Shown: piece after piece, positions 8,535 through 52,528 of the stretch
Layout: every line of letters starts with the position of its first letter
Position numbering within the stretch: the first letter of the stretch is position 1
From: Candidatus Liptonbacteria bacterium
Lineage (GTDB): Bacteria > Patescibacteriota > Minisyncoccia > UBA6257 > 2-01-FULL-56-20
DNA length: 64,000 bases
Assembly: GCA_016204335.1 (NCBI GenBank)
Contig: JACQKU010000008.1
Coordinates: forward strand, 10,913 to 74,912
Direction of reading: 5' to 3'
Position numbers and translations under genes: made by a program
The notes under the pieces: model-generated
What the model saw: the letters and a program-made list of their open reading frames with translations, nothing else
Database searches by the model: none
What the model was told of the DNA's origin: nothing

Positions 8535-8921
8535 GAGAGTAATCGCGAACCATTCGACAGGCTCATGATGATTCGGCGAATGATGGTGAGCAAGGTCGAA
8601 CCATAACGCGAATCAAAGAGGTAATAATGCGAATCCGGTATTGTTACTATTTTTCTAATGGGATTCATTACCTTTATATTGTAAGCGATTTTACCCTGTG
8701 TTATCCAGATGTCCCTCTTGACCGAAGTATCCTCGTCTTGCTATCATACAATCATTAAAGAGTCACCAAACAATTTTTCCTAAAAAACTCAAGGAGTAAT
8801 CGCGAATATCACGAATAAAAAGAGATAATAATGCGAATAGTACGTATAGTATTCGCGTTATTACTCGAAGATTCGCGTTATTAGCGAATACTGATTATGA
8901 AGAATTTAGGGATACAACAGT

Positions 8922-13634: not shown

Positions 13635-14567
13635 ATGGAGTTAAAAGAAAAAAAAATTTTAGTCACCGGCGGCGCGGGATTTTTGGGAAAATTTGTCATT
13701 GAGAAGTTAATCGGACGCGGAGTGGCGACAGAAAATATTTTCATACCCCGCGAGGCGGAATTCGATTTGCGGAATCGGGAACAATGTCTTCGCGCGACCG
13801 AAGGGCAAGACATTGTAATCCATCTGGCGGGCAAAGCCGGCGGCATCGGGTTCAACCGCGAGCGTCCCGGCGAACTTTTTTACGACAATATCGTTATGGG
13901 CGTCGAGTTGATGGAGGCGGCTCGGAAAGCCGGAGCCGGGAAATTCGTCGGCATCGCGTCGGTTTGTTCGTATCCGAAATTCACCCCTGTTCCGTTCAGG
14001 GAAGACGATTTGTGGAGCGGCTATCCCGAAGAAACGAACGCGCCGTACGGCCTCGCGAAGAAAATGCTTCTGGTGCAGGCGCAGGCGTATCGCGCCCAAT
14101 ACGGCATGAACGCGATTACCCTTTTCCCGGTTAATTTATACGGTCCCGGCGACAGTTTCGACCTTTCGCGGGCGCACGTTATTTCTTCATTGATTAAAAA
14201 AGTCGCGGATGCAAAAAAAGAGAATAACGGTTTTATTGAAGCGTGGGGAAGCGGCAAGCCGACCCGGGAATTTTTATACGTTGAAGATGCCGCCGAGGGA
14301 ATCGCGCTCGCGGCGGAAAAATACGACAAGCCGGAGCCGGTGAATTTGGGCTCGGGAAAAGAAATTTCGATAAAGGAACTCGCGGAGACGATATGCCGGC
14401 TGATGGATTTTCGGGGCGAACTGCGCTGGGACGCTTCCAAACCCGACGGTCAGCCGCGCCGCCAACTGGATGTGTCGCGCGCCGAGAAAGAATTCGGCTT
14501 CAAGGCAAAAACCGATTTTGAGACAGGGTTAAAGAAGACGATTGAGTGGTATATGTCCAATAATTGA
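13635..14567 (+). CDS. fcl: GDP-L-fucose synthase (GDP-4-keto-6-deoxy-D-mannose 3,5-epimerase/4-reductase)
   Basis: [40 protein letters not shown] and [19 protein letters not shown] blocks match Fcl/WcaG. Confidence 0.85.
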
Positions 14568-39614: not shown

Positions 39615-39629
39615 TGTTTCTAACGGGAT
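39615..39629. repeat. Motif C copy TGTTTCTAACGGGAT followed by ATG (start of NUDIX gene 39628)
   Basis: Perfect reverse complement of 38261-38275. It lies 7 nt after the GT4 stop. Confidence 0.6.
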
Positions 39630-40092
39630 GAAAAAGTATTCTGTCGTCCGAAAAAGAATTCCCGAAAAGATTTATAAGGAAATCCACCGTTCATTGCCGA
39701 TAGTTTGCACGGACCTCGTCGTAACCGATGGAAAGCGGTTTTTTCTGGTAAGACGGAAAAATAAACCCGAAGCCGGCCGGTGGTGGTTTCCGGGCGGCAG
39801 AATTTTTAAAAATGAACTGTTAAAAAATGCGGCGCTAAGATTTTTAAAGCGCGAAACCGGGCTCAAAGGAAGTAAGCCAAGCCTATTGGGATTTTACGAG
39901 TACTTTGCGACGCCGGGGTATTTCCCCCGGATAAGTTCACATACCGTCATTTTTGTATTTAAAATAAAAGCTTCTTCAAATTTAAAATTCCGCCTGGATA
40001 GACAAAGCTCGGCCGCCAAATGGTTTTCAAGAATTAATCCGGCGTGGCATCCATACATCAAAACCTTTTTAAGGAAAGCTGGTTTAGAGTAA
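39628..40092 (+). CDS. NUDIX hydrolase, GDP-mannose mannosyl hydrolase (Gmm/NudD)-like
   Basis: RWWFPGGRIFKNELLKNAALRFLKRETGL parallels the Gmm variant Nudix box ([29 protein letters not shown]). Confidence 0.6.
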   Translation: MKKYSVVRKRIPEKIYKEIHRSLPIVCTDLVVTDGKRFFLVRRKNKPEAGRWWFPGGRIFKNELLKNAALRFLKRETGLKGSKPSLLGFYEYFATPGYFPRISSHTVIFVFKIKASSNLKFRLDRQSSAAKWFSRINPAWHPYIKTFLRKAGLE

Positions 40093-40138
40093 TGACATTA
40101 TGAAAATTCTCAGCTTGGCGCAATAAGATTTATATTCA

Positions 40139-40642
40139 ATGACAACGCTCGTCTTCAAAAGATTTTTTTGTAAAATCGCGTATCCGCTTGCCGCCTGGAT
40201 TCTTTGGCGGGTTAGGCCGGATGCCTCGGCCTCTGCCTGCGCGATCGCGACAAACGGGAAATTGCTTTTAATTCAGCGTTCGTACGGGCCAGGCATGTGG
40301 GATCTTCCCGGAGGGAGAATCGGCAATAAGGAAACACCGGAAGAAACCGTGCGGCGTGAAGTTGAGGAGGAAGTTGGCGTCACTCTTGGGACGGTAAAAC
40401 TGTTCGGTGAGCATTTTTTTCTTCGCGATGATGGCATTAAGCGCGGCGTGGTGCATTGTTTTTACATTGAAGTGCCGAACGAGAATTTTATCCTAAAAAG
40501 CGGGGAAATCGCCGCGGCGAAATGGGTTGCCTTAGATAGCATTCCCGAATTTCATACTCAGTCGGTTGACACCACGCTCAGATTTTTGGACCCTCAAAGG
40601 CCCTGCCCGCCGTCAATTTCCAAGCACATCACGATTTTTTGA
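40139..40642 (+). CDS. NUDIX hydrolase (canonical Nudix box)
   Basis: GGRIGNKETPEETVRREVEEEVGV = GX5EX7REVXEEXGV. Confidence 0.7.
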   Translation: MTTLVFKRFFCKIAYPLAAWILWRVRPDASASACAIATNGKLLLIQRSYGPGMWDLPGGRIGNKETPEETVRREVEEEVGVTLGTVKLFGEHFFLRDDGIKRGVVHCFYIEVPNENFILKSGEIAAAKWVALDSIPEFHTQSVDTTLRFLDPQRPCPPSISKHITIF

Positions 40643-40675: not shown

Positions 40676-41737
40676 CTAAATATAATTTAACTCGTTAAGG
40701 CGTTCAATGACGCCAGTCGAATTGTTTTTTTGTTGTATAGCGAGGACGACCTCGGCTTCCGACACAATTTTTCTTAACGTACCCAAAATTTTTACCGGGT
40801 TTTTGCCCACTGCGGTTTCCGAAGAAAGAATCAGGCCATTCACGCCGTCGAGTACAAGGTTGATTATATCGTTGACTTCGCCTCTTGTAGGTTTGTCTTT
40901 GTGGAGCATGTTTTCAAGGAGGTGAGTAGCCACGAAAATAGGTTTCCTTTCTTTAACGCACTGTTTAGTGATGAGTTTCTGAACAAACGGTATTTTTTCG
41001 TAACCGATTTCCGTTCCGAGATCGTTTCTGTCGATAAGAATAGTGTCGCTTGCCGCGATTAGAGAATCAAGATTGTTAATTGCCCGGCGCGTTTCGATTT
41101 TCGAGGAAATCAGGATATTTTTTTTGCCGATAAATCGCCGTACTTCCTCCACATCTTTCGCGGCGCTGACGTACGACAGGGAAATCTCGGAGATTCCGTA
41201 TGGGAGAGCTTTTTTTATTACCAAACGGTCTGCGTCGGTAAGCATCGTTTTCGGTTCAATCTTTTTTTCGAGTCGGATGTTTTTTGGCACGCTCATTTCG
41301 CCTCCGCGCACTATCACGCACTCCAGCCGCGGGGACGGATCTTTTTTTCGCCCCAATACTTTTAGCACGATCCGGTTGTCGTCTATGGATATTTTTTCGC
41401 CTCTCGGGATGGCGGCGATGAATTCGGGGCGCGTGATCCATAAGGATTTTGATTGCATCGAAGAACCAAACGGTATTATTGAGATATGTTCGCGGCGTTT
41501 CAATATCGCCGTTTTTCCGAAAGGAGCCATCATTCTTGTTTCTTTTCCCTGGGTGTCAATGATGATGGGAATTTTCTTCGAGAGCGCGCGAATGTCCTCG
41601 ATAAGCTTTATCGCGCGTTCAGGGGGGGTGTGGCTAAGATTGATGCGAAGCGCATCGGTTTTTTTCCTTATGAGACCGGAAAGGGTTTTTGCGGAATCGG
41701 ACTTCGGTCCTATTGTGCAAATAATTTTTGTTTTCAT
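40676..41737 (-). CDS. Pyruvate kinase-like protein (barrel and cap domains only; lacks the usual C-terminal domain)
   Basis: MKTKIICTIGPKS...RINLSHT, ISKIETRRA, DRNDLGTEI, VATHLLENM...PTRGEVNDI follow the PK barrel. 353 aa versus about 470 for typical PK. Confidence 0.6.
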   Translation of the reverse strand: MKTKIICTIGPKSDSAKTLSGLIRKKTDALRINLSHTPPERAIKLIEDIRALSKKIPIIIDTQGKETRMMAPFGKTAILKRREHISIIPFGSSMQSKSLWITRPEFIAAIPRGEKISIDDNRIVLKVLGRKKDPSPRLECVIVRGGEMSVPKNIRLEKKIEPKTMLTDADRLVIKKALPYGISEISLSYVSAAKDVEEVRRFIGKKNILISSKIETRRAINNLDSLIAASDTILIDRNDLGTEIGYEKIPFVQKLITKQCVKERKPIFVATHLLENMLHKDKPTRGEVNDIINLVLDGVNGLILSSETAVGKNPVKILGTLRKIVSEAEVVLAIQQKNNSTGVIERLNELNYI

Positions 41738-41752
41738 GGTTATAATTATGCG

Positions 41753-43144
41753 CTATATCAATGGTTTTCCGGAGAGTTTTTTATACTCTTTTATCCCGAG
41801 CGCCTTGAGAATTGTAGGGGCGATTTGAACGGTTTCGACCTGCCCGAGGTTTCCTAAGGGGCCGCCTTCTTTTTTTAATATAATGACGCCTTCGGGAGCA
41901 TGCCCGGCATCGTCGGTCCCGACAGTAGTTCCTTCGGAATACAGCCCTTTATTCCCGATATCGTTATTGGTTCCGTAGCGAAGGTTGTCGAAATACACTA
42001 CTGCGTCAGGGGCTTTATCGCCTTTTTTCCTGTAAATTTTTGAAGTATCGTATACCTTTGTATTCAATTTTTCGCCTTTTACGCCTCTAATTAGCGGAAG
42101 TTCTTTACTAATCCGTCTCAAAATTTTCACCCTGTTTTTTTTGTCGTAAATATAAACATTTGCCTGATATCCTTCAGTGGCTATGACACTCGTTTTATCC
42201 CAGTCTATGGTTTCGTAGTCGAGTCGTTTCGGGCCGTTTGCGTAAAAATCCGCAAATTCTTTTTTTACGGCCAAAAAACCTTTTTCCCGCAGCCAGTCAT
42301 TTAAATTTATCCGGCGAATCATGTGGTCCATTCCATGGTCGGACACCACCATCACCGTTGTTCCGGAATCCATTTTTGAATGTTTCATAAATTTTCCGAA
42401 CTCCCCATCCACGTATTTATAGAAATCCAATACCGCGTTTTTGTAGGGTGAATTTTTGACGTAGCGTTCATGAGTGGGGTCAATATGCGCCCAGAACATA
42501 TGGTGAAGTCGGTCTGTGCCGATAGTCACAAAATCAAAAAGGTCCCAATCCATTTTTTCAAAAAGATAGCGGGCAATTTTGAAATGCTGTTTGGTCATTT
42601 TATAACTTTGCGAGATGAGAAAATCCAAATTCATTTTCTTATATCCCAGAAATCCGGCCACATCAAACATGTAATCTTTGCCGAAAAGAAGTTCTTGGAT
42701 TTTCTTCTTGAAAGAAACCGGATAGACGCTCTTATCGTCAAAGCTTGGAGTCAAAAAATCGGTTACCATTACCCCGTTAATTTTTTTTGCGGGATAGGTG
42801 AGAGGGATATTGAGCGCAATTGTCTTCTTTCCTTTTCTGCTCAGCATATCCCAAAGCAGAGGAGTTTTTATATCGGTAGATGTAACGAGCGAAGGAGTGC
42901 GGTAATGGCGTCCTTGTTTTGCCATATAACTTTGAATACCGGTTTCTCCGGGGTCCCTGCCGCTGTTGATAGAAGTCCAGGCGACGGTTGAAGTCGGCGG
43001 AACGGTGGAGTTCAAGATTCCGTAAGAACCTTCTTCGATAAGACAGGAAAAGTTGGGCAATTGGTTTCTATAACGCCCGAATACCAGTTTAGGGACAAAT
43101 CCATCTATGCCGAAAAGAAATACTTTTTGCTTTTTGGGTTTCAT
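41753..43144 (-). CDS. Alkaline-phosphatase-superfamily type I phosphodiesterase / nucleotide pyrophosphatase (PF01663-like)
   Basis: FLFGIDGFVP...STVPPTSTVAWTSINSGRDPGETG (metal-binding T/S nucleophile region) and MVVSDHGMD. Confidence 0.65.
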   Translation of the reverse strand: MKPKKQKVFLFGIDGFVPKLVFGRYRNQLPNFSCLIEEGSYGILNSTVPPTSTVAWTSINSGRDPGETGIQSYMAKQGRHYRTPSLVTSTDIKTPLLWDMLSRKGKKTIALNIPLTYPAKKINGVMVTDFLTPSFDDKSVYPVSFKKKIQELLFGKDYMFDVAGFLGYKKMNLDFLISQSYKMTKQHFKIARYLFEKMDWDLFDFVTIGTDRLHHMFWAHIDPTHERYVKNSPYKNAVLDFYKYVDGEFGKFMKHSKMDSGTTVMVVSDHGMDHMIRRINLNDWLREKGFLAVKKEFADFYANGPKRLDYETIDWDKTSVIATEGYQANVYIYDKKNRVKILRRISKELPLIRGVKGEKLNTKVYDTSKIYRKKGDKAPDAVVYFDNLRYGTNNDIGNKGLYSEGTTVGTDDAGHAPEGVIILKKEGGPLGNLGQVETVQIAPTILKALGIKEYKKLSGKPLI

Positions 43145-43149
43145 CGCAG

Positions 43150-44289
43150 TTATACGAATAATTTTTTTTCTTTAAGCAGTATCCTTGATATCTCGCGTCT
43201 TAGCATTTCCGCGGGAGGGGCTTTACCAATCGTAAGCATGTTCCGTATGAGCGTACCAGAGGAGTGCACGCGATACTTTTCTCCGTGCGGGCAGGCGTCC
43301 TCGAATGCGGTAGTCTTGCAACGCGTGCAGTAAAAGGCTTTTCCAAAATGGAAAATTTTTATGCCCATTGCGCGGTTATATTTTCCAATCATAAAGGCGT
43401 AATTTTGAAGCGTGTAAAAGTTTCCGACGCCCGTGTGGTCGCGCCCGACGATAAAATGCGTACAGCCGAAATTTTTGCGGATAACGGCGGTTAAAAGAGC
43501 CTCGCGCGGCCCCGCGTAGTAGGCATTGTAGGGAAGAAAGCTCAAGACGGCTTTCCCGCGCGGAAGAATGTGCGCCACAAAATAACGATAAGCTTTTGCC
43601 ACGACCTCATTCCGGAAATCGCCTTTCTTTTTAGAACCGATTAACGGATGCACAAGAATGCCGTCGGTTTTTTTAAGACCTTCCTTCTGGATGTGTTCAT
43701 GCCCAAGATGAGGCACATTCCTGGTATGAAACGCGACAATCTGTTTCCAATGCTTTTTTTGAAAAAGAGTTCTTGTTTCGCGCGGAGTCAGATACGGAAG
43801 TAATGTTCGAAGCGGTTTTCCGATCCAGGTAATATCTCCGCCGATAAGATACGGTTTTGCGCGTTTAAGTTTCGCCACGCCGGGATGCGCGACATCTGTC
43901 GTGCCGAATACTTTTTTTGCGAAAAGCGTTTTGGGAAAAGGATATATTTCTGAAATTTCGAGAAGCCCTATGATTTTTCCGGAAAAGTTCTTAAGAAATA
44001 TCTCCTTTTCTTTGAAAATTTTTTTTCGTTCGTCGGCATCAATATCAAGGATAATCGGGATAGGCCAGAAGACGTTGTTTTTCAGAGACAAATGATTGAG
44101 CACAGACAGGAAATCTTTTTTATTCAAGAATCCACTAAGGGGACTGTATGCTCCCGTTGCGATATTCCACAGTTCAACGATTTTTTCGTGAGCTATCGGA
44201 AGCGACCGAAGTTTTTGCGCCAAAAGCCGTCTCTTTTCTTTTGGAGACGCGATACGATTAATCAGCTTGTTGCCCAGAGGTTTATTCAT
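43150..44289 (-). CDS. sat: Sulfate adenylyltransferase (ATP sulfurylase)
   Basis: AFHTRNVPHLGHEHI (QTRNxxHRAHE-type motif) and IVGRDHTGVG (GRDHAG motif). Confidence 0.85.
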   Translation of the reverse strand: MNKPLGNKLINRIASPKEKRRLLAQKLRSLPIAHEKIVELWNIATGAYSPLSGFLNKKDFLSVLNHLSLKNNVFWPIPIILDIDADERKKIFKEKEIFLKNFSGKIIGLLEISEIYPFPKTLFAKKVFGTTDVAHPGVAKLKRAKPYLIGGDITWIGKPLRTLLPYLTPRETRTLFQKKHWKQIVAFHTRNVPHLGHEHIQKEGLKKTDGILVHPLIGSKKKGDFRNEVVAKAYRYFVAHILPRGKAVLSFLPYNAYYAGPREALLTAVIRKNFGCTHFIVGRDHTGVGNFYTLQNYAFMIGKYNRAMGIKIFHFGKAFYCTRCKTTAFEDACPHGEKYRVHSSGTLIRNMLTIGKAPPAEMLRREISRILLKEKKLFV

Positions 44290-44292
44290 GGA

Positions 44293-44511
44293 TTAAAGAT
44301 ATCCGAGTTTTTTCAGATGCTCGCGGATTTGCGTTTCTTCAGCAAAGAGCGGCTTATCGGTTTTTTCCAAAAGAAGTTCGCGCAAAATAAAGGCGACAAA
44401 AGCGGATACAGACACAAAGCCCGTGCCGTCGATTGTTTTTTCTATCCGGGCGTGAAGCGAACGGGGGATTGAGACAGTCGTGTAATCATTCCGTTTCTTT
44501 TTGATAGCCAT
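44293..44511 (-). CDS. Ribbon-helix-helix (CopG/NikR-like) DNA-binding protein
   Basis: TVSIPRSLHARIEKTI...GFVSVSAFVAFILRELL is an RHH signature. First gene of the sat operon. Confidence 0.6.
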   Translation of the reverse strand: MAIKKKRNDYTTVSIPRSLHARIEKTIDGTGFVSVSAFVAFILRELLLEKTDKPLFAEETQIREHLKKLGYL

Positions 44512-44777
44512 AGTGTAATTATGGGTAATTACAATTTGGTGTCAAGGGGTGGCTGTGGATAAACGTATTGGGTTAACAAAATGCCGATATAAGGCCTGTT
44601 TTATTGCTTATCCAGCCGGATTTTGCTAATATACGGCAATGATAAAGAAAAAATCTTCAAAAAAGCGGGTGCCAGAAAAAGAAGCGGGGAACGCCGACAT
44701 AGAAAAGCGGAAGGAGGGGGAGCGGAAAAAAGTTATGGAACAGTTGCGCGCGCTGGGATATATTTAGGGAACCAATG

Positions 44778-44904
44778 CCAGGCAGTAGAACTGCGACATT
44801 GGCAGTTCGTAATTTCAATGATTCATATCGCGAGAAAGGTCTTTTTTACTTTAGAAACTTGTAACAAGTCAGCCGCAGGCTGAAGTCGCAGTTTCACTGC
44901 CTGG
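44778..44904. repeat. Palindromic element family B copy 2 (CCAGGCAGTAGAACTGCGAC...GTCGCAGTTTCACTGCCTGG)
   Basis: Ends 2 nt before the ATG of the sulfatase-like gene. Confidence 0.5.
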
Positions 44905-44905
44905 T

Positions 44906-46300
44906 ATGCCTTCACAGAAAAGGAGAACAAAGCCCAACGTCATTTTTATTGTCATCGACGGACTGCGCGCCGACCATCTCGGCTCGTTCGGCTACCGCCG
45001 CCCCACGAGCAGATTTTTGGATGCGTTCGCGAAAAACTCGGTTAATTTCCGTTCGCACTTTTCAAACAGTTCTCAATCGGCGCCGGGATTTTTTTCTATT
45101 TTTGCATCGGCATATCCTTTTATGCGGAGCGATTGGACGACGACCAAGGGTCCTTATGAATTTTTAAGTGAAGTTTTTCGAAAAAACGGTTACAAAACTG
45201 CAGGATTCGCCTGTTCTCCTTATATCTCTTCATTCTTCGGCTATGACCGCGGGTTCGACGATTTTTATTATTCCGGATGCCATGATGATTCGGATGCGGT
45301 GAAAAAAACCATAAAGTCGACATTACCCTCGCGGATGTTCGAAATGCTCAAGAAGTTTGTTAAAACCACCACTATCGGAAAAATGATGAATCGTATCAGA
45401 TTCCGTTTTTTAATGCAGCCCGCTTACAGCAATTCGGAAGCAATCAATGAAATCGTGGAAAATCATCTTTCTCGTAGCGATTGCAATGACAGGCCTCTTT
45501 TCGCGTGGATCCACTACTTGGATGCGCATGTTCCTTTTAGAAGCAAAAAAAATGATATTCGGGCGGTGGGAGGACGCTTTGGCGCGCGGCGCGCAAATTT
45601 TTTGGACCGTAAAGTATTCAGCTTTACACTCCTCAATCCTTTTGTCGATGAAGAACGGATGACCGTTCAAGAACTCAAAGACCTTGAGCTATGTTATGAC
45701 GCGCAAATTTACCGCGCCGATCGCAATCTCGAAAAATTGTTTTCAATGCTTTCGGAGAACGGTATCTCCCGGGAGAATTCCGTAATCGCGATTACCGCCG
45801 ACCACGGAGAGGGATTCGGGGAACACTTCGGCATAGGGCATACTATGCGTCTTTATGATGAGTTGGTGCATGTTCCTTTCTTTTTATCAGTACCGGGAGG
45901 AAAACCGCGCGAAGTTTATGATCTCACCAATCATATCGATATTGTGCCGACACTCGCCGCATCCGCGGGAATTTCTTTGCGAAGCCGTTTCATCAAAGGC
46001 AAAAATGTGCTTAAGGGTTCGGATACAAAGTATGTCTTTAGCGAAGTCGCGCCGAACCTCGGCGGCATGCTCTCTAAAATAGATTTTTCAAGAAGCGTGT
46101 TTTCCGTCCGCGGAAAGGAATGGAAATATATCAAGGATTATGCAAGGGAAAGAGAGGAACTTTACCATTTATCGGAAGATCCTGACGAGTTGAAAGATCT
46201 GTCGCAAACGGAAGTAGACGTTAAAAACAAACTTTGGAATTTGTTGAGAGTACATATCAAGAGGAAAACGAAAGCGGTGCCGTATCTTAAGGATGTCTAG
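44906..46300 (+). CDS. Sulfatase-like hydrolase/transferase (alkaline phosphatase superfamily); canonical C/S-x-P-x-R sulfatase motif not evident
   Basis: NVIFIVIDGLRADHLGSFGY (metal site), TADHGEGFGEHF and overall sulfatase-domain layout, but NSSQSAPG in place of CxPxR. Confidence 0.65.
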   Translation: MPSQKRRTKPNVIFIVIDGLRADHLGSFGYRRPTSRFLDAFAKNSVNFRSHFSNSSQSAPGFFSIFASAYPFMRSDWTTTKGPYEFLSEVFRKNGYKTAGFACSPYISSFFGYDRGFDDFYYSGCHDDSDAVKKTIKSTLPSRMFEMLKKFVKTTTIGKMMNRIRFRFLMQPAYSNSEAINEIVENHLSRSDCNDRPLFAWIHYLDAHVPFRSKKNDIRAVGGRFGARRANFLDRKVFSFTLLNPFVDEERMTVQELKDLELCYDAQIYRADRNLEKLFSMLSENGISRENSVIAITADHGEGFGEHFGIGHTMRLYDELVHVPFFLSVPGGKPREVYDLTNHIDIVPTLAASAGISLRSRFIKGKNVLKGSDTKYVFSEVAPNLGGMLSKIDFSRSVFSVRGKEWKYIKDYAREREELYHLSEDPDELKDLSQTEVDVKNKLWNLLRVHIKRKTKAVPYLKDV

Positions 46301-46333: not shown

Positions 46334-47149
46334 TCAATCTTTCCCTTTCCAAAAAAATGTATTGTTAAGATCGACTATTTTGTGAACGTATCCCATTTTT
46401 TCTAATTTTTGCGTAATGAAGGGTGTCGGGTCTTCTATGAGAAGTTTTATATCGGGGTTGCGCCGTATTGTTTCCATTGCGCCCCGAAATACGGGGTCAA
46501 CTACGCCCTCAACGTCAATCTTTATAAAGTCAGCGCGCTGGGGGCTTATATCGTCTATCCGGACCGCATCGACACGATACTCGCGTATTGTCTTATCGTC
46601 ATCTTTGCCGAAATTCGATCCTATTTTATGTTCATAATCTTTTCTTGGATCTTCCATACTTGACCATGTCCACGCATCTCCGACAACATACAGAGTTTTC
46701 TTCTCTTGAGAATCAGACGCGGCGGCTTGCTTTGAAGACACAACATTCTCGAAGCCATTTTCTTTAATGTTTTTGGTAAGAAGCGCGAAGCTGTTTGGTT
46801 CCGGCTCTATTGCAACTACCTTTCCCGTTTCACCCACCAATTTCGCCGCAATGAGCGTGAACCATCCTATTGATGCTCCGATATCAATGAATACCCCACC
46901 CTCTTGCAAGTTCTTAAAAAGTAATTGAGTGGACTCCGGTTCTTTGGCACCGAATTTTTCCGCCAATGATTCACGTGGGTCAAGCCAAATTTTTAGTCCG
47001 TGCTTGTGCACAAACGATTCTTTTTTGCCTTTCAAAAATTTCTCGAAACGAACATTTAAATTTCGTATCCATGTAATTTTACTAAGACCCAAGCCGCGCA
47101 CTATATGGCGGCGGAAAAATATATAAATTTTGATTAAGATTTTTTTCAT
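46334..47149 (-). CDS. FkbM-family methyltransferase
   Basis: VFIDIGASIGWFTLIAAKLVGETGKVVAIEPEPNSFALLTKN. Confidence 0.7.
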   Translation of the reverse strand: MKKILIKIYIFFRRHIVRGLGLSKITWIRNLNVRFEKFLKGKKESFVHKHGLKIWLDPRESLAEKFGAKEPESTQLLFKNLQEGGVFIDIGASIGWFTLIAAKLVGETGKVVAIEPEPNSFALLTKNIKENGFENVVSSKQAAASDSQEKKTLYVVGDAWTWSSMEDPRKDYEHKIGSNFGKDDDKTIREYRVDAVRIDDISPQRADFIKIDVEGVVDPVFRGAMETIRRNPDIKLLIEDPTPFITQKLEKMGYVHKIVDLNNTFFWKGKD

Positions 47150-47245
47150 TTTTTATCGCGCATTCGGTTGTCCCTTGTCCATTTTTTATTCCATTTATTT
47201 TGTTATATTGGTGATGATAATGTGCAAGCGTTATGCGCCCATTAA

Positions 47246-48355
47246 TTATGAATTCGCGTAAAACTCTTTTATTTTTTCAATAACCTCATCTTTTTGTTCT
47301 TTGGTGATATGCGATGCTGACGGAAGTTGGAGCCCGTTCGCGCCGTAGTGGTCAGCCCACTTGAAATCACCCTTGTCGTTGTAAATCGGCTGGGCATGCA
47401 TGGGGATAAAGAATGTCCTTGTTTCTATCCCGTTCTTCGCAAGATATTCCATTAGCTCGTCGCGCCGCGGCGCCAAGAGTCCGAACATCCAAAATACGCA
47501 AAAAGTGTTTAGTGGTTCGGGAAAGAACCTTAATCCGGGGATATTTTTTAGGCCGTTCAGGTAATATTTCGCATTCGCCCTTCTTTTCAGAACCAATTCA
47601 TCAAGCCGCTTTAGTTGCGCAAGACCAAGTGCGGCACCTAACGCGGACATTCTAAGATTCCAGGCGATCGTTTTATGCCAGAAGTGTTTTTCATCATCAA
47701 AGTCATAACCTCGTATGTGGCGGAGCTTGTCGGTTAATTCGTAGTTATTCGTAAGGATCATACCTCCTTCTCCTGTGGTCATTATTTTGTTGGCATAAAA
47801 AGAAAAACAACTTGCTTCGCCGAATGTTCCCATAAGTTTTCCTTTGTATTTTGCGCCGTGTGCTTCGGCTGTGTCTTCGATAACAAGTAGATTATGTTTT
47901 TTAGCGATATCCATTATTTTGGACATGTCGCATGGTTCGCCGTATGCATGCACAGGCATGATGGCGCGCGTTTTTACAGTTATTTTTTCCTCAATTTTAC
48001 TTGGGTCGATGTTGAAACTTTTTTCGCTGGAGTCCACGAAAACAGGTGTCGCGCCGCAGTGGCTTACGGCTCCAGCGGTTGCCACCATTGTAAAACTTGG
48101 CATAATCACCTCATCGCCAGGAACAATTCCAAGCGCTTTCAGAGTCAAAAAAAGCGCGGAGCCGCCGGAATTCACGGCCACTGCATACTTCATCCCGAAT
48201 TTTTCCGCAAATGCGTCTTCCAGTTTTCCAACCGGCGAGGCTATCGAAGAGATTTCTTTGTTTTTTATGGCATCAACCACATAATTTATCTCAAGCTCTG
48301 ATATGTCCGGTTCGCAGACGCGGATTTTCACCGGATATTTATTGACACTGGGCAT
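47246..48355 (-). CDS. DegT/DnrJ/EryC1/StrS-family PLP-dependent sugar aminotransferase (GDP-perosamine synthase-like by context)
   Basis: VIEDTAEAHGAKYKGKLMGTFGEASCFSFYANKIMTTGEGGMI with the Schiff-base Lys region. Confidence 0.85.
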   Translation of the reverse strand: MPSVNKYPVKIRVCEPDISELEINYVVDAIKNKEISSIASPVGKLEDAFAEKFGMKYAVAVNSGGSALFLTLKALGIVPGDEVIMPSFTMVATAGAVSHCGATPVFVDSSEKSFNIDPSKIEEKITVKTRAIMPVHAYGEPCDMSKIMDIAKKHNLLVIEDTAEAHGAKYKGKLMGTFGEASCFSFYANKIMTTGEGGMILTNNYELTDKLRHIRGYDFDDEKHFWHKTIAWNLRMSALGAALGLAQLKRLDELVLKRRANAKYYLNGLKNIPGLRFFPEPLNTFCVFWMFGLLAPRRDELMEYLAKNGIETRTFFIPMHAQPIYNDKGDFKWADHYGANGLQLPSASHITKEQKDEVIEKIKEFYANS

Positions 48356-48369
48356 ATAAGTTTGTTATC

Positions 48370-49338
48370 TTATTTAGATTTTTTTTGCAAGTCGGCCAAA
48401 TCTGCTTCCACCATTAGCTTCACAAGTTCTTTGAATTTTATTTTTGGACTAAAACCAAATGCGTTTTGCGCTCTTGAGATATCGCCTACGAGTGCCGTGT
48501 TTTGCGCCGGCCTTAAAAATTTCGGATTTATTTTGACATATTTTTGAGAGTCAAGTCCGACGGTGGCAAAGGCCTCGTCTACGAATTCTTGCACCGAGTG
48601 CGCTTCTCCGGTGCAAATGATATAGTCATCCGCTTTTGGCTGTTGCATGATGTTCCACGCCGCCTCCATGTATTCTTCGGCGTAGCCCCAGTCGATTTTA
48701 GCCGAGAGGTCACCCAATTCAAGAACATCCTGGAGGCCGAGCGAAATTCGAGCGACGGACTTGGTTATCTTTCTTGTGACGTATTCGTCTGGTCTCCGCG
48801 GCGATTCGTGATTGTAAAAAATGGCAGTGGCAACGAACATGTCATACGCTTCGCGATAAAAGCGGCTTACGACGTAGGCCAGGACTTTAGCGCATGCATA
48901 GGGGCTCTGCGGCCGAAACGGAGTGTTCTCGTTCTGCGGATGTTCCGTTGCCTTGCCGAAGACATTCGAAGTGATGGGCTGGAAGAATTTTATGTCCGGA
49001 TTTACTTGTTTTACGATTTCAAGAATTTTTCCGACAGCCACGCCGGTAACATTATATTGATATTCCACGATGTCAAAACTCCAGCCAGCGTGGTCCTGGT
49101 CGGCTTCGTTGTAGATTTCTTCCGGATTAACTTCGCGGATTACCTTCCAGAGCGAGTTCGTGTCCAAAAGGTCGCCGCGATGAAGTATCAAAGAGTCCTT
49201 TATGTGTTCAATGTTTTTGGTGTTGCCGGTCGCGGTGCGCCGGATAAACCCGTGGACTTCGTATCCTTTTTCAAGAAGTATTTCGGCAAGATATGACCCG
49301 TCTTGCCCCGTGATGCCTAAAATGAGAGCTTTTTTCAT
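48370..49338 (-). CDS. GDP-mannose 4,6-dehydratase paralog
   Basis: [40 protein letters not shown]; about 60% similar in motif pattern to gmd at 12608. Confidence 0.8.
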   Translation of the reverse strand: MKKALILGITGQDGSYLAEILLEKGYEVHGFIRRTATGNTKNIEHIKDSLILHRGDLLDTNSLWKVIREVNPEEIYNEADQDHAGWSFDIVEYQYNVTGVAVGKILEIVKQVNPDIKFFQPITSNVFGKATEHPQNENTPFRPQSPYACAKVLAYVVSRFYREAYDMFVATAIFYNHESPRRPDEYVTRKITKSVARISLGLQDVLELGDLSAKIDWGYAEEYMEAAWNIMQQPKADDYIICTGEAHSVQEFVDEAFATVGLDSQKYVKINPKFLRPAQNTALVGDISRAQNAFGFSPKIKFKELVKLMVEADLADLQKKSK

Positions 49339-49411
49339 GCTTGTCAATTTTACCATCTTATCAACTCTTGAGAAAATATGAAAGAGGAGATGGATTGTCC
49401 TGCCCCGTTAT

Positions 49412-49921
49412 TCATTTCCTCCGGCGCCGATTATGAAAATGCCGCGCGATAAATCGGCGATGGATGGTAATCATCTTTCGCGGCAGGCGCGATGCGTCCC
49501 AAAATTTCATGTCCGCGGTTTCCCGAACCGTTTTCCTTGGCTCGCAAAGAACGTACACCGAGAGCGGTCGTCCGTAGGGATGTTCGCCTTCGCGCCATTT
49601 ATCGGCATCGAGGACTTCGAGATACTTCACATCGAAATCCAACTCGCGTTTTGCGACGCGCGAGCAGGTTTCCTGGATCGTTTCATTCCAGATATTATAG
49701 CCGCCAGGAATGTGCCAATAGCCGCGCGCGAATTTCCCCTGATAGGGCGTGAGAAGTATCTCGGCGCCATGCGTGCGTTTGCGGAGGATCACGAGTTCCG
49801 GCGCCCACATTGAAACCGCGCCATGGAGCGGTTCGAACGCTTCATCGGGAATAAAAAAATTTTGCTCGGGTATTTTTTTGAGGAGCCGCGCCAGTGTTTG
49901 CGCTTCTTTTTTCGTCATCAT
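49412..49921 (-). CDS. Divergent NUDIX-like hydrolase
   Basis: WHIPGGYNIWNETIQETCSRVAKRELD is a degenerate Nudix box. Confidence 0.4.
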   Translation of the reverse strand: MMTKKEAQTLARLLKKIPEQNFFIPDEAFEPLHGAVSMWAPELVILRKRTHGAEILLTPYQGKFARGYWHIPGGYNIWNETIQETCSRVAKRELDFDVKYLEVLDADKWREGEHPYGRPLSVYVLCEPRKTVRETADMKFWDASRLPRKMITIHRRFIARHFHNRRRRK

Positions 49922-50162: not shown

Positions 50163-50885
50163 CTAGTCGCCGAACGGGTAAGGTATGATTCCCTCCTCCT
50201 CGAGCTGGTCGCGGAGGCCGTCCGTGACCAGGCGGAAGATCGCGGCCCGCTTCGCGGCGAGGAGCTTCCCGAGCTGGGTGCGGATGCACACGCCCGACTC
50301 GGAATCGACCCAGTCGAGCGAGTAGGCGATGTCCCGGAACACCGTCCTCGGTGCCTGGTACGTTGCCTCAGGGTCGTCGAGGAAGTGTTTGTAGTCGACG
50401 ACCGGCAGATCCGCATAGTGCTGACCGGACCTTGCGAAAAGATCGCCGTCCAAGTTCACGATCCGGTCGGCGTCCATCAGCGCGATGAGCACCGGCGAGT
50501 CGTTCGAAGAGTTCTTGCCGTCGTGGCCGAGGACTGCGGCCACGATAGCATCCACTTCGGGGCCGTAGTAGCCGAAGACCGGCTCCGGGACGTGCCCATA
50601 CGCGGATGGGCGAGTCTCGGTCATAAGCCAGCTCTTGACGAGCCGGCTCGTTTCGTCAGTGGGCACTTCGCGCCGGCCAACGCCGAGCTTCTTCTGTATC
50701 ACCTTGTCGGCGTTGTGGCAGAGCCCGGCTACACCGGCGAGCTCAGCGGTCTGCTTGTCGGTCTCGTTGAGGCCGATCTGGTAGGCGATCTGGCCTACCC
50801 GCGCGGCGTGCACCCAATCGTGGTGCCCGACGAGACCGACTTCCTCGTGGCTCTTGTGGACTGCAGCGAACAAATCGGGGAACAT
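50163..50885 (-). CDS. HD-domain metal-dependent phosphohydrolase-like protein, paralog 1 (GC-rich xenolog)
   Basis: Shares ordered blocks with the next two genes (LAGVAGLCHNADKV / DADRIVNL / IIPYPFGD). Own SD (GGAGGGG) and terminator hairpin at about 50085-50115. GC content far above the window average. Confidence 0.6.
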   Translation of the reverse strand: MFPDLFAAVHKSHEEVGLVGHHDWVHAARVGQIAYQIGLNETDKQTAELAGVAGLCHNADKVIQKKLGVGRREVPTDETSRLVKSWLMTETRPSAYGHVPEPVFGYYGPEVDAIVAAVLGHDGKNSSNDSPVLIALMDADRIVNLDGDLFARSGQHYADLPVVDYKHFLDDPEATYQAPRTVFRDIAYSLDWVDSESGVCIRTQLGKLLAAKRAAIFRLVTDGLRDQLEEEGIIPYPFGD

Positions 50886-51119
50886 CTCCCAGATTCTCAC
50901 TTGCCCCTCCCTTCGGGTTAGAGTCGTTGCAAGAGCAGTTCGTCGGCAGAGATACACTCCGCCGTCAAACCGCCGGTTTTCGGTAAGGACGATACACATA
51001 CTTCCTTTCTTCAGTCGTATTCACTTTTCAAGGGCTGATATAGCGAAAGGGGCCAGGTCCGCCGAACTGCTTTTAGTGAAACATAAATCAAAAGATATGT
51101 CAAATCACCGCTCCCCCCG

Positions 51120-51821
51120 TTAATTCTTTTTTCGCGAAAACGGATACGGCCGAAGGCGGCTTTCCTTCAGCTGGTTTTCTATGTCCTGCATGAATATTTT
51201 GAGAAATGCGAACCGCTTCGCGCCGATTTTTTTTGCCTTGGGGAGCCGGAGCCATTTTTTCCACTCAAGCGAGTATGAGATGTCTTTTCCGACTGACTCG
51301 GGATGACGATAACTCGATGAGGGATGGTGGAACAGATGAATATAGTCAAGAACTGGAAGGTGTTCGAGCTCCTTCGCGCTCCGAAGGCACAGGAGCGCGC
51401 CGACATTCGCGAGACGATCCGCGTCTTTGAGCGCTACGGTTACTTTGCTGTCGCGCGGATCGTTTCGTTTGCGATGCTCCATTACTGCTTCGATCACCAA
51501 TTGTTTGTCGTTATGGTTGAGTGTGGTGTATTGTAAATATTGGATAAGTTTTTTCCGGACAAGAGTATCAAGGGTATGCTTTTTTCGGAAATGTTCCGGA
51601 ACGAGACCTCGTTCGATAAGATGATCCGTATTGTGGCATATTCCGGCAACCCACGCGAGTTTGGCTGTTCGCGCGTCGTCTGCGATGCGAACGCTGTAAT
51701 TCGCGACCATCAGCGCGTGCTCAAAGTCATGCCCGCTCTCGCTTGCCCTCACTTTTTCGTGATCGCGAATGACCATAGTAAGAAGTTCCGTGTATTTTTT
51801 GATGAGTGTTTCGATGGACAT
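51120..51821 (-). CDS. HD-domain phosphohydrolase-like protein, paralog 2
   Basis: RDHEKVR..GHDFEHAL...LAWVAGICHNTDHL...ALKDADRLANVGA...RPYPF. Confidence 0.6.
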   Translation of the reverse strand: MSIETLIKKYTELLTMVIRDHEKVRASESGHDFEHALMVANYSVRIADDARTAKLAWVAGICHNTDHLIERGLVPEHFRKKHTLDTLVRKKLIQYLQYTTLNHNDKQLVIEAVMEHRKRNDPRDSKVTVALKDADRLANVGALLCLRSAKELEHLPVLDYIHLFHHPSSSYRHPESVGKDISYSLEWKKWLRLPKAKKIGAKRFAFLKIFMQDIENQLKESRLRPYPFSRKKN

Positions 51822-51829
51822 GATTTATA

Positions 51830-52528
51830 TTATAGGAGGTGCTTGTATGTTGCGGGAAGCGGATACATCCCGATTGATTTCAATTGGCGCATAATATCGT
51901 TGAGCGCTTGGCGCATAAACTCGGCGCCCGGTTTGGAAATATGTTTTGCTTTCAGAAGCCGAATTTTCACCGATGGCTTCTCGGTCCATTCCAAAACATA
52001 GGTCAAATCTTCCACTGCTGTTTTTTCTTTGCCGAACGAATTTTTCAAGCGCATTGGCGAAACAAAATCGAAGAGCGACCTATTGTGATAATATTGCCCA
52101 ATGCGAAGGAGTACAATCGCGCCGAAATCCGCGATTCTGTCCGCGTCTTTCAGCGTTACGGTTACCCTATCATCGTTCGGATCATTTTTTTTCGTGTGAT
52201 TCATCACTGCCCGGAAAACGATTTCTTTTTCTGAAGCCGTGAGGGGAGTTTTTTGAAGATGCGCCTTAAGTATTCGCGGGGTGTTTCTGTTTCCGAACAA
52301 GCGGTCAGTGTTGTGGAGAATTGCCGCCAGCCAGGCAAGCCGCGCGGTTTTTTTATCCGGAGCGATTTTGAGCGCGGTGTTTGCCACGCGGAACGTATGC
52401 CCGATGTCGTGATGATGCCCCACTTTTTTCACTCGCGTTTTATGATCGCGCGATACTCGAGCAAGAAGCAGATGAAATTCTTTTCCCAAAGAAGGAAGCA
52501 GATAGGTAAAATCTTTCGAATTTCTCAT
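51830..52528 (-). CDS. HD-domain phosphohydrolase-like protein, paralog 3
   Basis: RDHKTRV..GHHHDIGHTF...LAWLAAILHNTDRL...TLKDADRIADFGA...MYPLP. The start codon is embedded in motif C (52528-52542). Confidence 0.6.
   Translation of the reverse strand: MRNSKDFTYLLPSLGKEFHLLLARVSRDHKTRVKKVGHHHDIGHTFRVANTALKIAPDKKTARLAWLAAILHNTDRLFGNRNTPRILKAHLQKTPLTASEKEIVFRAVMNHTKKNDPNDDRVTVTLKDADRIADFGAIVLLRIGQYYHNRSLFDFVSPMRLKNSFGKEKTAVEDLTYVLEWTEKPSVKIRLLKAKHISKPGAEFMRQALNDIMRQLKSIGMYPLPATYKHLL

Follow-up and report, generated by a model that had tools for sequence, protein, structure and literature searches.

A sulfate-activation locus with a short pyruvate kinase and two alkaline-phosphatase-superfamily proteins in a glycan-biosynthesis island of Candidatus Liptonbacteria

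A 64,000-nucleotide stretch of contig JACQKU010000008.1 (hereafter the window), from a metagenome-assembled genome of Candidatus Liptonbacteria in the candidate phyla radiation (CPR)/Patescibacteria, was analysed around a minus-strand gene cluster encoding an ATP sulfurylase (Sat) and a short pyruvate kinase (PK). All five open reading frames (ORFs) named in the original prediction for this DNA, which had been made from the letters alone and had expected minimal sulfur metabolism in the host, were confirmed in position. Four of them are encoded on the minus strand, in the order ribbon-helix-helix (RHH)-like small protein (44293-44511; 72 aa, ending ...IREHLKKLGYL), Sat (43150-44289; 379 aa, PUA_2 and ATP-sulfurylase domains), an alkaline-phosphatase (AP)-superfamily protein with a nucleotide pyrophosphatase/phosphodiesterase (NPP) fold, here called AlkP-like (41753-43144; 463 aa, PF01663 Phosphodiest), and the short PK (40676-41737; 353 aa, PF00224, ending ...VIERLNELNYI). 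The gaps between them measure 3, 5 and 15 nt, so that the four genes are read as an operon, as had been proposed. The fifth ORF, on the plus strand and divergent from the operon, encodes a sulfatase-fold protein (44906-46300; 464 aa, PF00884). Upstream of it and co-oriented lies an ORF overlooked in the original prediction, which encodes a Lys/Glu-rich peptide of 42 aa (44639-44767 on the plus strand) ending in ...VMEQLRALGYI.

The same gene set recurred in the neighbourhoods of relatives (loci L004-L096; P numbers denote relative proteins), most of which came from a search of species-representative genomes with an AlkP-like family profile (530 relatives; locus counts refer to the best 80 loci). 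The combination of sulfatase-fold protein, tail-bearing peptide, RHH protein, Sat, AlkP-like protein and short PK, with or without a PQ-loop protein and an adenosine 5'-phosphosulfate (APS) kinase (APSK), was found in the Patescibacteria loci L004, L005 and L013 and in a Diapherotrites archaeon (L011). In the loci of the PK relatives the genes for the sulfatase-fold protein and a peptide of 44-47 aa are on the minus strand, followed on the plus strand by an RHH gene leading Sat, AlkP-like and PK. APSK directly follows the short PK in L004 and L013, is the last of four genes in a row (AlkP-like, short PK, Sat, APSK) in L011, where GT4 and DegT genes come next, and is also present on the contig of P0005. 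The earlier statement that neither APSK nor reductase of 3'-phosphoadenosine 5'-phosphosulfate (PAPS) is visible holds for the window, but for APSK it does not extend to the sister clusters in which APSK comes directly after PK. In the 64-kb window, no APSK (canonical query from L004, divergent P-loop query from L016), CysQ, PQ-loop transporter or L007-type sulfotransferase was detectable by tblastn, and its Pfam annotation contained no PAPS reductase, sulfite reductase or sulfotransferase family. The PAPS-loop motif was likewise absent from the window ORFs without a Pfam match, which is a weak test for cryptic sulfotransferases, and no Liptonbacteria protein was among the top 120 of an APSK profile search.

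Altogether, the AlkP-like gene directly adjoined Sat and/or APSK in 12 of the 80 loci, distributed over CPR, DPANN, Armatimonadota, Chloroflexota, Nitrospinota, Omnitrophota, Hydrothermota and Hermodarchaeota. Counted beyond CPR and DPANN, AlkP-like genes adjoin Sat or APSK in at least seven phyla. The order Sat-AlkP-APSK was observed in Armatimonadia, Anaerolineae and Hermodarchaeota, while the Chloroflexota locus L067 carried Sat and AlkP in one ORF followed by APSK, and adjacency of AlkP to Sat or APSK took other orders in Nitrospinota, Omnitrophota and Hydrothermota. Two loci were found independently, by way of a tail-bearing APSK (the tail is described below): L093, where RHH-Sat-AlkP-APSK-TauE has STT3/AglB, the archaeal oligosaccharyltransferase, as well as a flippase and glycosyltransferases (GTs) as neighbours, and L094, in whose glycan cluster CysDN and a sulfate ABC transporter lie beside APSK and three AlkP-like paralogues. 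Since L093 contains Sat and L094 contains CysDN, AlkP is associated with sulfate activation whatever the type of sulfurylase. As a side observation, the AlkP-like, short PK, Sat and RHH-tail proteins of CPR and DPANN (L011) were 45-50% identical and had the same derived motifs, which suggests inter-domain transfer of the whole module.

Every pair of components was found fused somewhere among the relatives: PK-APSK (P0116), AlkP-PK (P0180 and P0185), PK-Sat (L016, 749 aa), Sat-AlkP (L067, 869 aa, and P0415) and the triple fusion AlkP-PK-Sat (P0390, 1151 aa). For a domain census, the 150 best relatives of the window Sat were taken from an exhaustive search of 1.84 billion cluster representatives. 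Sat stood alone in 92 of these, and a PK domain was present in 43 (PK-Sat in 37, PK-Sat-APSK in 4, and Sat-PK and AlkP-PK-Sat in 1 each); the others were Sat-AlkP (1), Sat-APSK (7) and APSK-Sat (7). PAPS synthase-type fusions (Sat-APSK, APSK-Sat and the eukaryotic Sat-APSK-pyrophosphatase) resemble the module in that sulfate-activation enzymes are fused or co-operonic, by which APS would be channelled and the unfavourable Sat step pulled in both; unlike in the classical fusions, the recurrent partners in the module are the PK barrel and an NPP-fold enzyme. The PK-containing Sat fusions are metagenomic proteins without a name, and a limited literature search, which could have missed a prior description, found no account of PK-Sat proteins or of a natural Sat-PK-AlkP module, nor, with the same limit, of COG3379 function or DUF7557. 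PK and the NPP-family enzyme had originally been regarded as odd companions of sat; their co-occurrence stands, and the oddity does not, both being the core of a widespread fused module.

The short PK matched PF00224 only (E 8e-63, residues 2-316), corresponding to the A and B domains. With 353 aa compared with approximately 470, it lacks the C-terminal alpha/beta, allosteric domain (PF02887), as had been noted, and its TIGR01064 score (262.8, cut-off 306.4) did not reach equivalog level. The motifs of the phosphoenolpyruvate (PEP), Mg and K sites are kept (RINLSH, DTQG, KIET, NDLG, ATH and SSETA), and all catalytic and metal residues were present in alignments with L. mexicana PK and within the clade. 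The B-domain lid motif K-[HG]-V-N-L-P-G of 102 canonical PKs, in which the Asn occurs in 100 and the Pro in 101, reads K-N-I-R-L-E-K in the window PK. None of 13 stand-alone module PKs or 5 further short PKs retains either residue, and across 45 fusion PK domains the Asn is replaced wherever the position was readable, the Pro remaining in 4. Together, the kept PEP-side residues and the shared lid change indicate that the short PK, which falls in a tight clade (P0001-P0013), represents a specialised lineage, as opposed to a housekeeping gene in decay. A sequence identical to the window PK is annotated in a Candidatus Liptonbacteria genome. In a marine nonulosonic-acid cluster, APSK and a Sulfotransfer_2-like gene accompany a more distant short PK (P0093).

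Sat matched NF003166 with 403 bits (cut-off 387), PF14306 (E 3e-43) and PF01747 (E 3e-73), and by these family matches is an ATP sulfurylase of the homo-oligomeric Sat type. Its best match in the PDB was the ATP sulfurylase of Methanothermococcus thermolithotrophicus (8a8d, E 2e-101), which has the same PUA-like and catalytic architecture and the RNVPHLGHE motif, and which presumably serves assimilatory sulfate reduction. The HxxH motif is kept in the window Sat (H-L-G-H). In place of the FQTRN and GRDHAG of 8a8d, however, the window Sat, located in a glycan operon with PK, has FHTRN and GRDHTG (that is, QTRN to HTRN and Ala to Thr), at positions which, from the yeast and Penicillium structures, we take to contact the sulfate of APS. 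F-H-TRN with GRDH-T-G was present in all seven examined Sats adjoining a short PK, and canonical FQ(T/V)RN with GRDHAG in six AlkP-linked Sats without PK. Among the 150 representatives, all PK-fused Sats that were readable here (40 of 40) had His in place of the QTRN Gln, versus 20 of 97 unfused ones (Fisher p = 7e-20). PK-linked Sats, with His and mostly with Thr, thereby also differ from most of the 14 classical Sat-APSK and APSK-Sat fusions, of which nine have the canonical Gln/Ala, one His/Thr, one Leu and one Met, with two not fully readable.

A common C-terminal tail, RLxxLGY[IL], was found on the short PK, the RHH-like protein, the 42-aa peptide and APSK. As a regular expression it matched 3 of the 633 window ORFs of at least 30 aa, all three of them in the module (chance approximately 5e-7). 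Elsewhere the tail was present on the 10 closest short PKs (10/10), on both AlkP-PK fusions, on 34 of the 120 best APSKs and, often as LGY[IL]D/E, on small RHH proteins adjoining AlkP-like genes in 29 of the 80 loci; none of the Sat, AlkP-like and sulfatase-fold proteins examined had it. Most covalent PK-Sat junctions have lost the tail (clearly retained, as judged by eye, at approximately 9 of 42), and it is probably a non-covalent tether made redundant by fusion. Its receptor could be Sat, the AlkP-like enzyme or an AlkP-like paralogue, and the loci in which RHH-tail and AlkP-like genes occur without Sat favour the AlkP side. A tail of the HbYX/proteasome type was rejected because the bacteria with this tail have no proteasomes.

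The AlkP-like protein matched PF01663 (E 7.5e-34) and had no PDB sequence match at E < 0.01. An AlphaFold2 model (pLDDT 94.6) gave ENPP1/3 and Xanthomonas (Xac) NPP as the best fold matches in Foldseek (E 1e-19, TM score approximately 0.55, 13% identity), and D14, D211, H215, D269, H270 and H415, a full two-metal site, were invariant in 31 sequences of the family. On the predicted fold and these ligands the protein belongs to the NPP branch of the alkaline-phosphatase superfamily. As in the NPPs, a two-metal site is combined with a nucleophile at a helix N-terminus, the candidate in the model being Ser52, which starts the helix 52-59. It differs from them in its low identity and large insertions, in having Ser where the NPPs have Thr at the putative nucleophile position, in an invariant Arg212 beside a metal ligand, in reading as a cytoplasmic protein (the NPPs compared are secreted), and in a genomic setting of sulfate activation and glycan synthesis. 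At least two AlkP paralogues were present in 27 of the 80 loci, a pattern expected of tailoring transferases rather than of housekeeping hydrolases. In L092 (Singulisphaera), an AlkP-like gene lies between a GDP-mannose dehydratase gene and FkbM and GT4 genes, with no Sat nearby. The cultured Singulisphaera sp. Ch08 (NZ_CP155447.1) has an AlkP-like gene at approximately 4.29 Mb. The AlkP-like protein is, on these sequence features and contexts, a candidate sulfuryl-transfer or sulfonucleotide-processing enzyme. In approximately 25 Poribacteria loci (L037-L085), a sulfatase gene with a strong PF00884 match regularly preceded the AlkP-like gene by 1-2 kb; the AlkP-like gene there is surrounded by sugar-modifying genes (GFO oxidoreductase, UxuA-like, FemAB/GNAT, PhyH and DegT), with no Sat or APSK nearby.

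The sulfatase-fold protein matched PF00884 (E 2e-37), and its formylglycine position reads S-A-P-G-F, in agreement with the original observation that the C/S-x-P-x-R motif is missing. Ser or Thr at this position, absence of the motif Arg and conserved metal ligands were common to 13 of 13 orthologues, none of which had Cys there. Despite its fold, the window protein should thus, by motif, not be filed as a formylglycine-dependent (S1) sulfatase. The closest PDB sequences were promiscuous sulfatases/phosphonate monoester hydrolases and the 2-O glycosaminoglycan sulfatase BT1596. An LtaS-type transferase, which had been put forward as a check on the idea of sulfation, is not supported: the protein opens directly with the catalytic domain (MPSQKRRTKPNVIFIVIDG...) and has no N-terminal multi-pass membrane domain (by eye), the NCBIfam matches to YejM, LtaS and EptA were weak (LtaS 22.9 bits against a cut-off of 970; EptA 18 bits against 561), and it is nearer to true sulfatases. 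Since inspection by eye found no N-terminal hydrophobic segment in either the AlkP-like or the sulfatase-fold protein, with the catalytic domain starting at once, both appear to be soluble and cytoplasmic.

A precedent for sulfation by such proteins exists in Halobacterium salinarum, in which Agl30 (VNG1056C) and Agl31 (VNG1057C), sulfatase-like proteins of the AP superfamily, sulfate N-glycan sugars (PMC11980604). Deletion and heterologous expression proved this role in Zaretsky et al. 2025, in which the donor, nucleophile and mechanism were left unaddressed (PMC11980604). Agl7 of Haloferax (HVO_2046) has likewise been connected by genetics to the sulfation of a dolichol-phosphate hexose. Like the window protein, which is likened to them by fold and context, Agl30 and Agl31 combine a sulfatase fold with a location in a glycan cluster, Agl31 is soluble, and their closest structural neighbours are glycosaminoglycan sulfatases, BT1596 (5G2T/5G2U) being among the top PDB matches of the window protein as well. 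Several paralogues per cluster and no canonical sulfotransferase are common to the Agl30/Agl31 cluster and the module. The systems differ in host (a haloarchaeon and a CPR bacterium), and the NPP-fold (PF01663) partner of the module has no counterpart in the Agl30/Agl31 system. In the searched text of PMC11980604, PAPS, a sulfate donor and genes for Sat, APSK and PK are unmentioned. With an AP-superfamily fold, a glycan cluster and no canonical sulfotransferase detected in the window, the sulfatase-fold protein is, by analogy, a candidate glycan sulfotransferase of the Agl30/Agl31 kind.

The start of the operon has features that would suit autoregulation. A promoter-like site, TTGACA-16-CATAAT (11/12 consensus match), lies directly upstream of the 72-aa gene and is overlapped by a palindrome with 14-nt arms (44508-44521/44526-44539; the two together at 44508-44545, minus strand), which on its position is a candidate operator (44508-44539). 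The original proposal of RHH regulation is plausible and weakly supported: the 72-aa protein matched RHH_1 with E 0.029, 8 of 16 orthologues matched, and a single orthologue exceeded the Pfam cut-off (L042, 21.9 bits against 20.5). In a PDB profile search, NikR RHH domains were the most consistent family (E 0.3-0.6, not significant alone). The RHH assignment is at most moderately supported by sequence, and the protein is a probable autoregulator or adaptor. On the other side, L004, L005 and L012 each have a counterpart of the 42-aa peptide in the same place (tblastn E 1e-6 to 1e-7). A hairpin (44775-44907, plus strand) with 23-nt arms and 87% complementarity lies in the 138-nt leader of the sulfatase-fold gene and buries its start codon; the folding energy is -54 kcal/mol (z = -5.0), a stability reached by none of 200 shuffles. 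L004, L005 and L012, in which the equivalent spacer measures only approximately 23-53 nt, do not share the hairpin. It is therefore lineage-specific, and is either an element of translational control or a palindromic insertion.

The operon is embedded in a single glycan-biosynthesis island of approximately 54 kb (10548-64000, from about 10.5 to 64 kb of the window), as judged from Pfam matches of essentially every sizeable ORF. The island contains a Wzy-type polymerase/ligase, YfhO, GHMP kinases, nucleotidyltransferases, GDPD, NUDIX and HD hydrolases, three strong GDP-mannose 4,6-dehydratase matches and many other NAD-dependent epimerase/dehydratase-family genes, GT2, GT4 and GT10 glycosyltransferases (the latter fucosyltransferase-like), a DegT aminotransferase, FkbM methyltransferases and two C-methyltransferases. 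This content implies a heavily decorated polymer of deoxy, amino and methyl sugars. Next to the sulfatase-fold gene, genes for an FkbM methyltransferase, a DegT aminotransferase and a GDP-mannose 4,6-dehydratase (46334-49356, minus strand) are the likely source of the acceptor sugar, and neighbours of the FkbM, DegT and GDP-mannose-dehydratase type also flank AlkP-like genes in L004, L012 and the Singulisphaera locus L092. An island of this size is unusual for a CPR genome. Three NUDIX hydrolases, one of them GDP-mannose mannosyl hydrolase-like, are scattered in it, and there are two tandem HD-domain proteins (NUDIX and HD genes in 39628-40642 on the plus strand and in 49412-49921 and 51120-52528 on the minus strand) with an unannotated GC-rich (0.55) third ORF at 50163-50999; NUDIX and HD genes similar to these recur in L004 and L012. 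The GC content was 0.42-0.45 across 42-48 kb and approximately 0.48 elsewhere in the window.

Some related loci carry additional or substituted genes. In L012 (11395-13558; Patescibacteria) and 12 DPANN loci of Woese- and Nanoarchaeota (L020-L036), two paralogous proteins of approximately 360 aa occupy the positions of Sat and PK beside RHH and AlkP-like genes. These paralogues had no Pfam or PDB match beyond a faint NTP_transf_2, and by eye share an invariant G-x-T/S-x-S-T-L-x-G...S-D-I-D motif resembling Pol-beta-type nucleotidyltransferases; judging by this motif, they may make an alternative nucleotide-activated donor. PQ-loop/SemiSWEET-like membrane proteins of 86-105 aa are encoded in L004 (7171-7470), L005 (6967-7284), L013 (8555-8827) and L012 (3881-4141), none being detected in the window, and L093 encodes a TauE-family permease (8595-9344); these could be the sulfate importers of transporter-poor organisms. 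In L016, from an uncultured archaeon, the PK-Sat fusion is followed by a 200-aa AAA_33/KTI12-like P-loop kinase (13641-14243) that is not a canonical PF01583 APS kinase and may, from its position and fold family, be a non-canonical one; tblastn found no homologue of it in the window.

On balance, these observations led us to favour, with a modest degree of confidence, a PEP-coupled sulfate-activation unit that feeds sulfation of a surface glycan, with the two AP-superfamily enzymes as the sulfotransferases. From the domain identities, conserved active-site residues, synteny, fusions, Sat-PK co-variation and tail motif described above, we infer the directions and substrates of its steps, the AP-superfamily enzyme that transfers, the donor (APS or PAPS) and the role of the tail. 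Sat would adenylate sulfate to APS, and the short PK would use PEP to supply or regenerate ATP where sulfate is activated; in relatives with APSK, PK would recycle the ADP released in the conversion of APS to PAPS. The AlkP-like and sulfatase-fold proteins, with Ser/Thr nucleophiles, would replace canonical sulfotransferases and move the sulfuryl group from APS or PAPS onto sugars of the surface glycan built by the island. The RHH-like protein would autoregulate the operon, and the tail on PK, APSK, RHH protein and 42-aa peptide would tether these to a common partner (Sat or the AlkP-like enzyme), assembling in trans what many relatives fuse in cis.

Since the pathway needs a sulfotransferase and the canonical families were not seen, the sulfatase-fold protein is read as a glycan sulfotransferase on the Agl30/Agl31 precedent. 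The distribution of transferases was compared across the loci reached through PK or APSK and not through AlkP. AP-superfamily proteins without a Sulfotransfer domain were present in the window, L004, L005, L093 and L094, Sulfotransfer_1/2 without AlkP in L007 and L096, and no locus among these seven had both. Canonical sulfotransferase families were likewise absent from every AlkP-containing locus with Pfam annotation, and none recurred among the 99 flanking ORFs of eleven Sat/APSK-linked loci. This complementary distribution, together with the paralogy, the L092 context and the Agl30/Agl31 precedent, led to these readings, with the NPP-fold protein as a second sulfuryl-transfer enzyme. The hint of glycan sulfation in the original prediction is upheld by the island context, the conserved set in other glycan clusters (one of them beside STT3/AglB) and the Agl30/Agl31 precedent (PMC11980604).

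The supply of ATP from PEP together with the recycling of ADP is the simplest role for PK, and explains the PK-APSK and PK-Sat-APSK fusions well. A corresponding combination has been engineered: PAPS cascades have been built from ATP sulfurylase, APS kinase, pyrophosphatase and PK with PEP (PMC9885120). The same four kinds of activity are combined in the module and for the same thermodynamic reasons. The cascade is, however, man-made from unrelated enzymes, whereas the module is natural, genetically linked and fused, and bears matched sequence changes and a common putative docking tail.

Several observations weigh against this interpretation. The ATP-supply role fits less well with PK-Sat fusions without APSK, with AlkP-PK fusions and with the APSK-less core in the window; in the window and L005, which have no APSK, transfer from APS as donor would yield AMP, which normal PK does not recycle. 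Being fused to enzymes of donor synthesis would be more usual for a pathway enzyme (pyrophosphatase or phosphatase of 3'-phosphoadenosine 5'-phosphate (PAP)) than for a transferase with a particular acceptor, which the AlkP-like protein is proposed to be; its two-metal NPP site suits phosphoryl and not sulfuryl chemistry, and the Agl30/Agl31 precedent covers the sulfatase fold of PF00884 only and not the NPP fold of PF01663. The consistent remodelling of the PK lid and the Sat pocket suggests that more than plain ATP regeneration may be involved, and the tail-bearing APSK of L095 has no AlkP gene within 8 kb. A futile cycle of PEP and phosphate to pyrophosphate (PPi) was rejected as having no physiological rationale and as conflicting with the APSK fusions.

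Some of these points would be accommodated if the cluster were a PAPS/APS factory with the sulfatase-fold protein as its sole sulfotransferase and the AlkP-like protein as a helper hydrolase, pulling or cleaning the pathway by removal of the PPi from Sat or of PAP/AMP-type by-products, which we regard as the strongest alternative, albeit an unlikely one. Sat, APSK, AlkP-like and PK each have a single counterpart in the engineered cascade (sulfurylase, APS kinase, pyrophosphatase and PK, respectively; PMC9885120), the helper would mirror the pyrophosphatase of the eukaryotic Sat-APSK-pyrophosphatase fusions, the NPP fold and full two-metal site suit hydrolysis of pyrophosphate bonds, and the position of AlkP-like between Sat and APSK, or fused to Sat or PK, is usual for pathway enzymes. 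However, a helper hydrolase would not be expected in glycan clusters without Sat or APSK nearby (L092, L012 and many DPANN loci), in two or more copies in a third of the loci (27/80), or in triplicate alongside CysDN in L094, which is driven by GTP and needs no PPi pull. PAP phosphatase as the main AlkP-like role was rejected, the clusters without APSK (window, L005 and L009) arguing against it. Hosts with large genomes can moreover be expected to have an ordinary pyrophosphatase and CysQ already.

That the sulfatase-fold protein, and possibly the AlkP-like one, moves a phospho-substituent (phosphoglycerol, phosphoethanolamine or similar) with Sat as a mere neighbour appears quite improbable. 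Members of the AP superfamily with a Ser/Thr nucleophile and no C/S-x-P-x-R motif do include LtaS, EptA and OpgB, in keeping with the weak NCBIfam matches reported above, and the island encodes GDPD and several nucleotidyltransferases. Those LtaS and EptA scores are nevertheless far under the cut-offs, the best matches being true sulfatases, and the apparently soluble, cytoplasmic nature of both proteins does not suit a membrane phospho-transferase. Repeated adjacency or fusion to Sat, APSK, CysDN and sulfate transporters in multiple phyla also argues against phospho-transfer.

We attach similarly little probability to a neofunctionalised PK and Sat that make another activated compound, then used by the AP-superfamily enzymes. 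Options would be a PK-like enzyme that moves the sulfuryl group of APS to enolpyruvate (sulfoenolpyruvate as donor), a PK that phosphorylates AMP besides ADP, or a His-type Sat that adenylates an anion other than sulfate. The perfect co-variation of the changed Sat residue, which we take to belong to the sulfate pocket, with PK fusion would fit this, as would the near-universal loss of the lid in sulfation-linked PKs with PEP-side residues kept and the APSK-less core module in the window, L005 and L009; PK-Sat and AlkP-PK fusions would join consecutive steps if APS were handed from Sat to PK and on to AlkP. Slow sulfuryl transfer from sulfoenolpyruvate, which has been reported for rabbit PK, would fit as well. 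Against neofunctionalisation, no natural sulfoenolpyruvate pathway is known to us, the PK-APSK and PK-Sat-APSK fusions and the APSK genes directly after PK fit ordinary PAPS synthesis with ADP recycling, and His-type Sats co-occur with canonical APSK, so that APS is presumably still made.

Ordinary sulfur metabolism, with Sat as the first step of assimilatory sulfate reduction or run in reverse (APS and PPi to ATP) for energy, is very improbable even though Sat is a bona fide homologue of the M. thermolithotrophicus enzyme and surveys list CPR/DPANN sat under sulfur cycling (PMC12153355), because no PAPS/APS reductase, sulfite reductase or Apr was found in the window or any related locus of this architecture (the sole PAPS_reduct-family match, in L094, adjoins a GTP_EFTU, CysN-like gene and is read as CysD), the glycan-biosynthesis context is always present, and fusion of APSK and PK is sensible only in the forward, PAPS-forming direction. 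The reverse reaction suggested in the original prediction is accordingly not supported, there being no source of APS and orthologous clusters carrying or fusing an APS kinase, which consumes APS in the forward direction.

A wider reading that takes the PEP-coupled sulfation unit beyond this locus is put forward more tentatively, as possible rather than probable. In this, PK-Sat proteins, with or without APSK and AlkP, would be an undescribed and widespread class of PEP-driven sulfate-activating enzymes, in which the Sat pocket (Gln to His, Ala to Thr) co-evolved with the nucleotide lid of PK. The AlkP-like proteins would be new APS/PAPS-dependent glycan sulfotransferases or sulfuryl-relay enzymes, and would explain the sulfate source of the sulfatase-fold sulfotransferases. 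Wiring of the components would be achieved by fusion or by the docking tail, which, being present on the RHH regulator and micro-peptides as well, would couple enzyme assembly to gene regulation.

If the favoured reading is right, CPR/DPANN sat would belong to a surface-glycan sulfation module and not to sulfur cycling, which would change how these genomes are read and would point to sulfated envelopes in episymbiotic ultrasmall cells. The module would link the sulfatase-fold sulfotransferases described in 2025, for which donor and mechanism were not addressed, to sulfate-activation machinery. The large unannotated family of PK-Sat fusions with matched active-site changes would be a natural counterpart of the hand-built PEP-driven regeneration of PAPS, and a possible source of compact PAPS-generating enzymes, while the short C-terminal tail motif may represent a general assembly signal.

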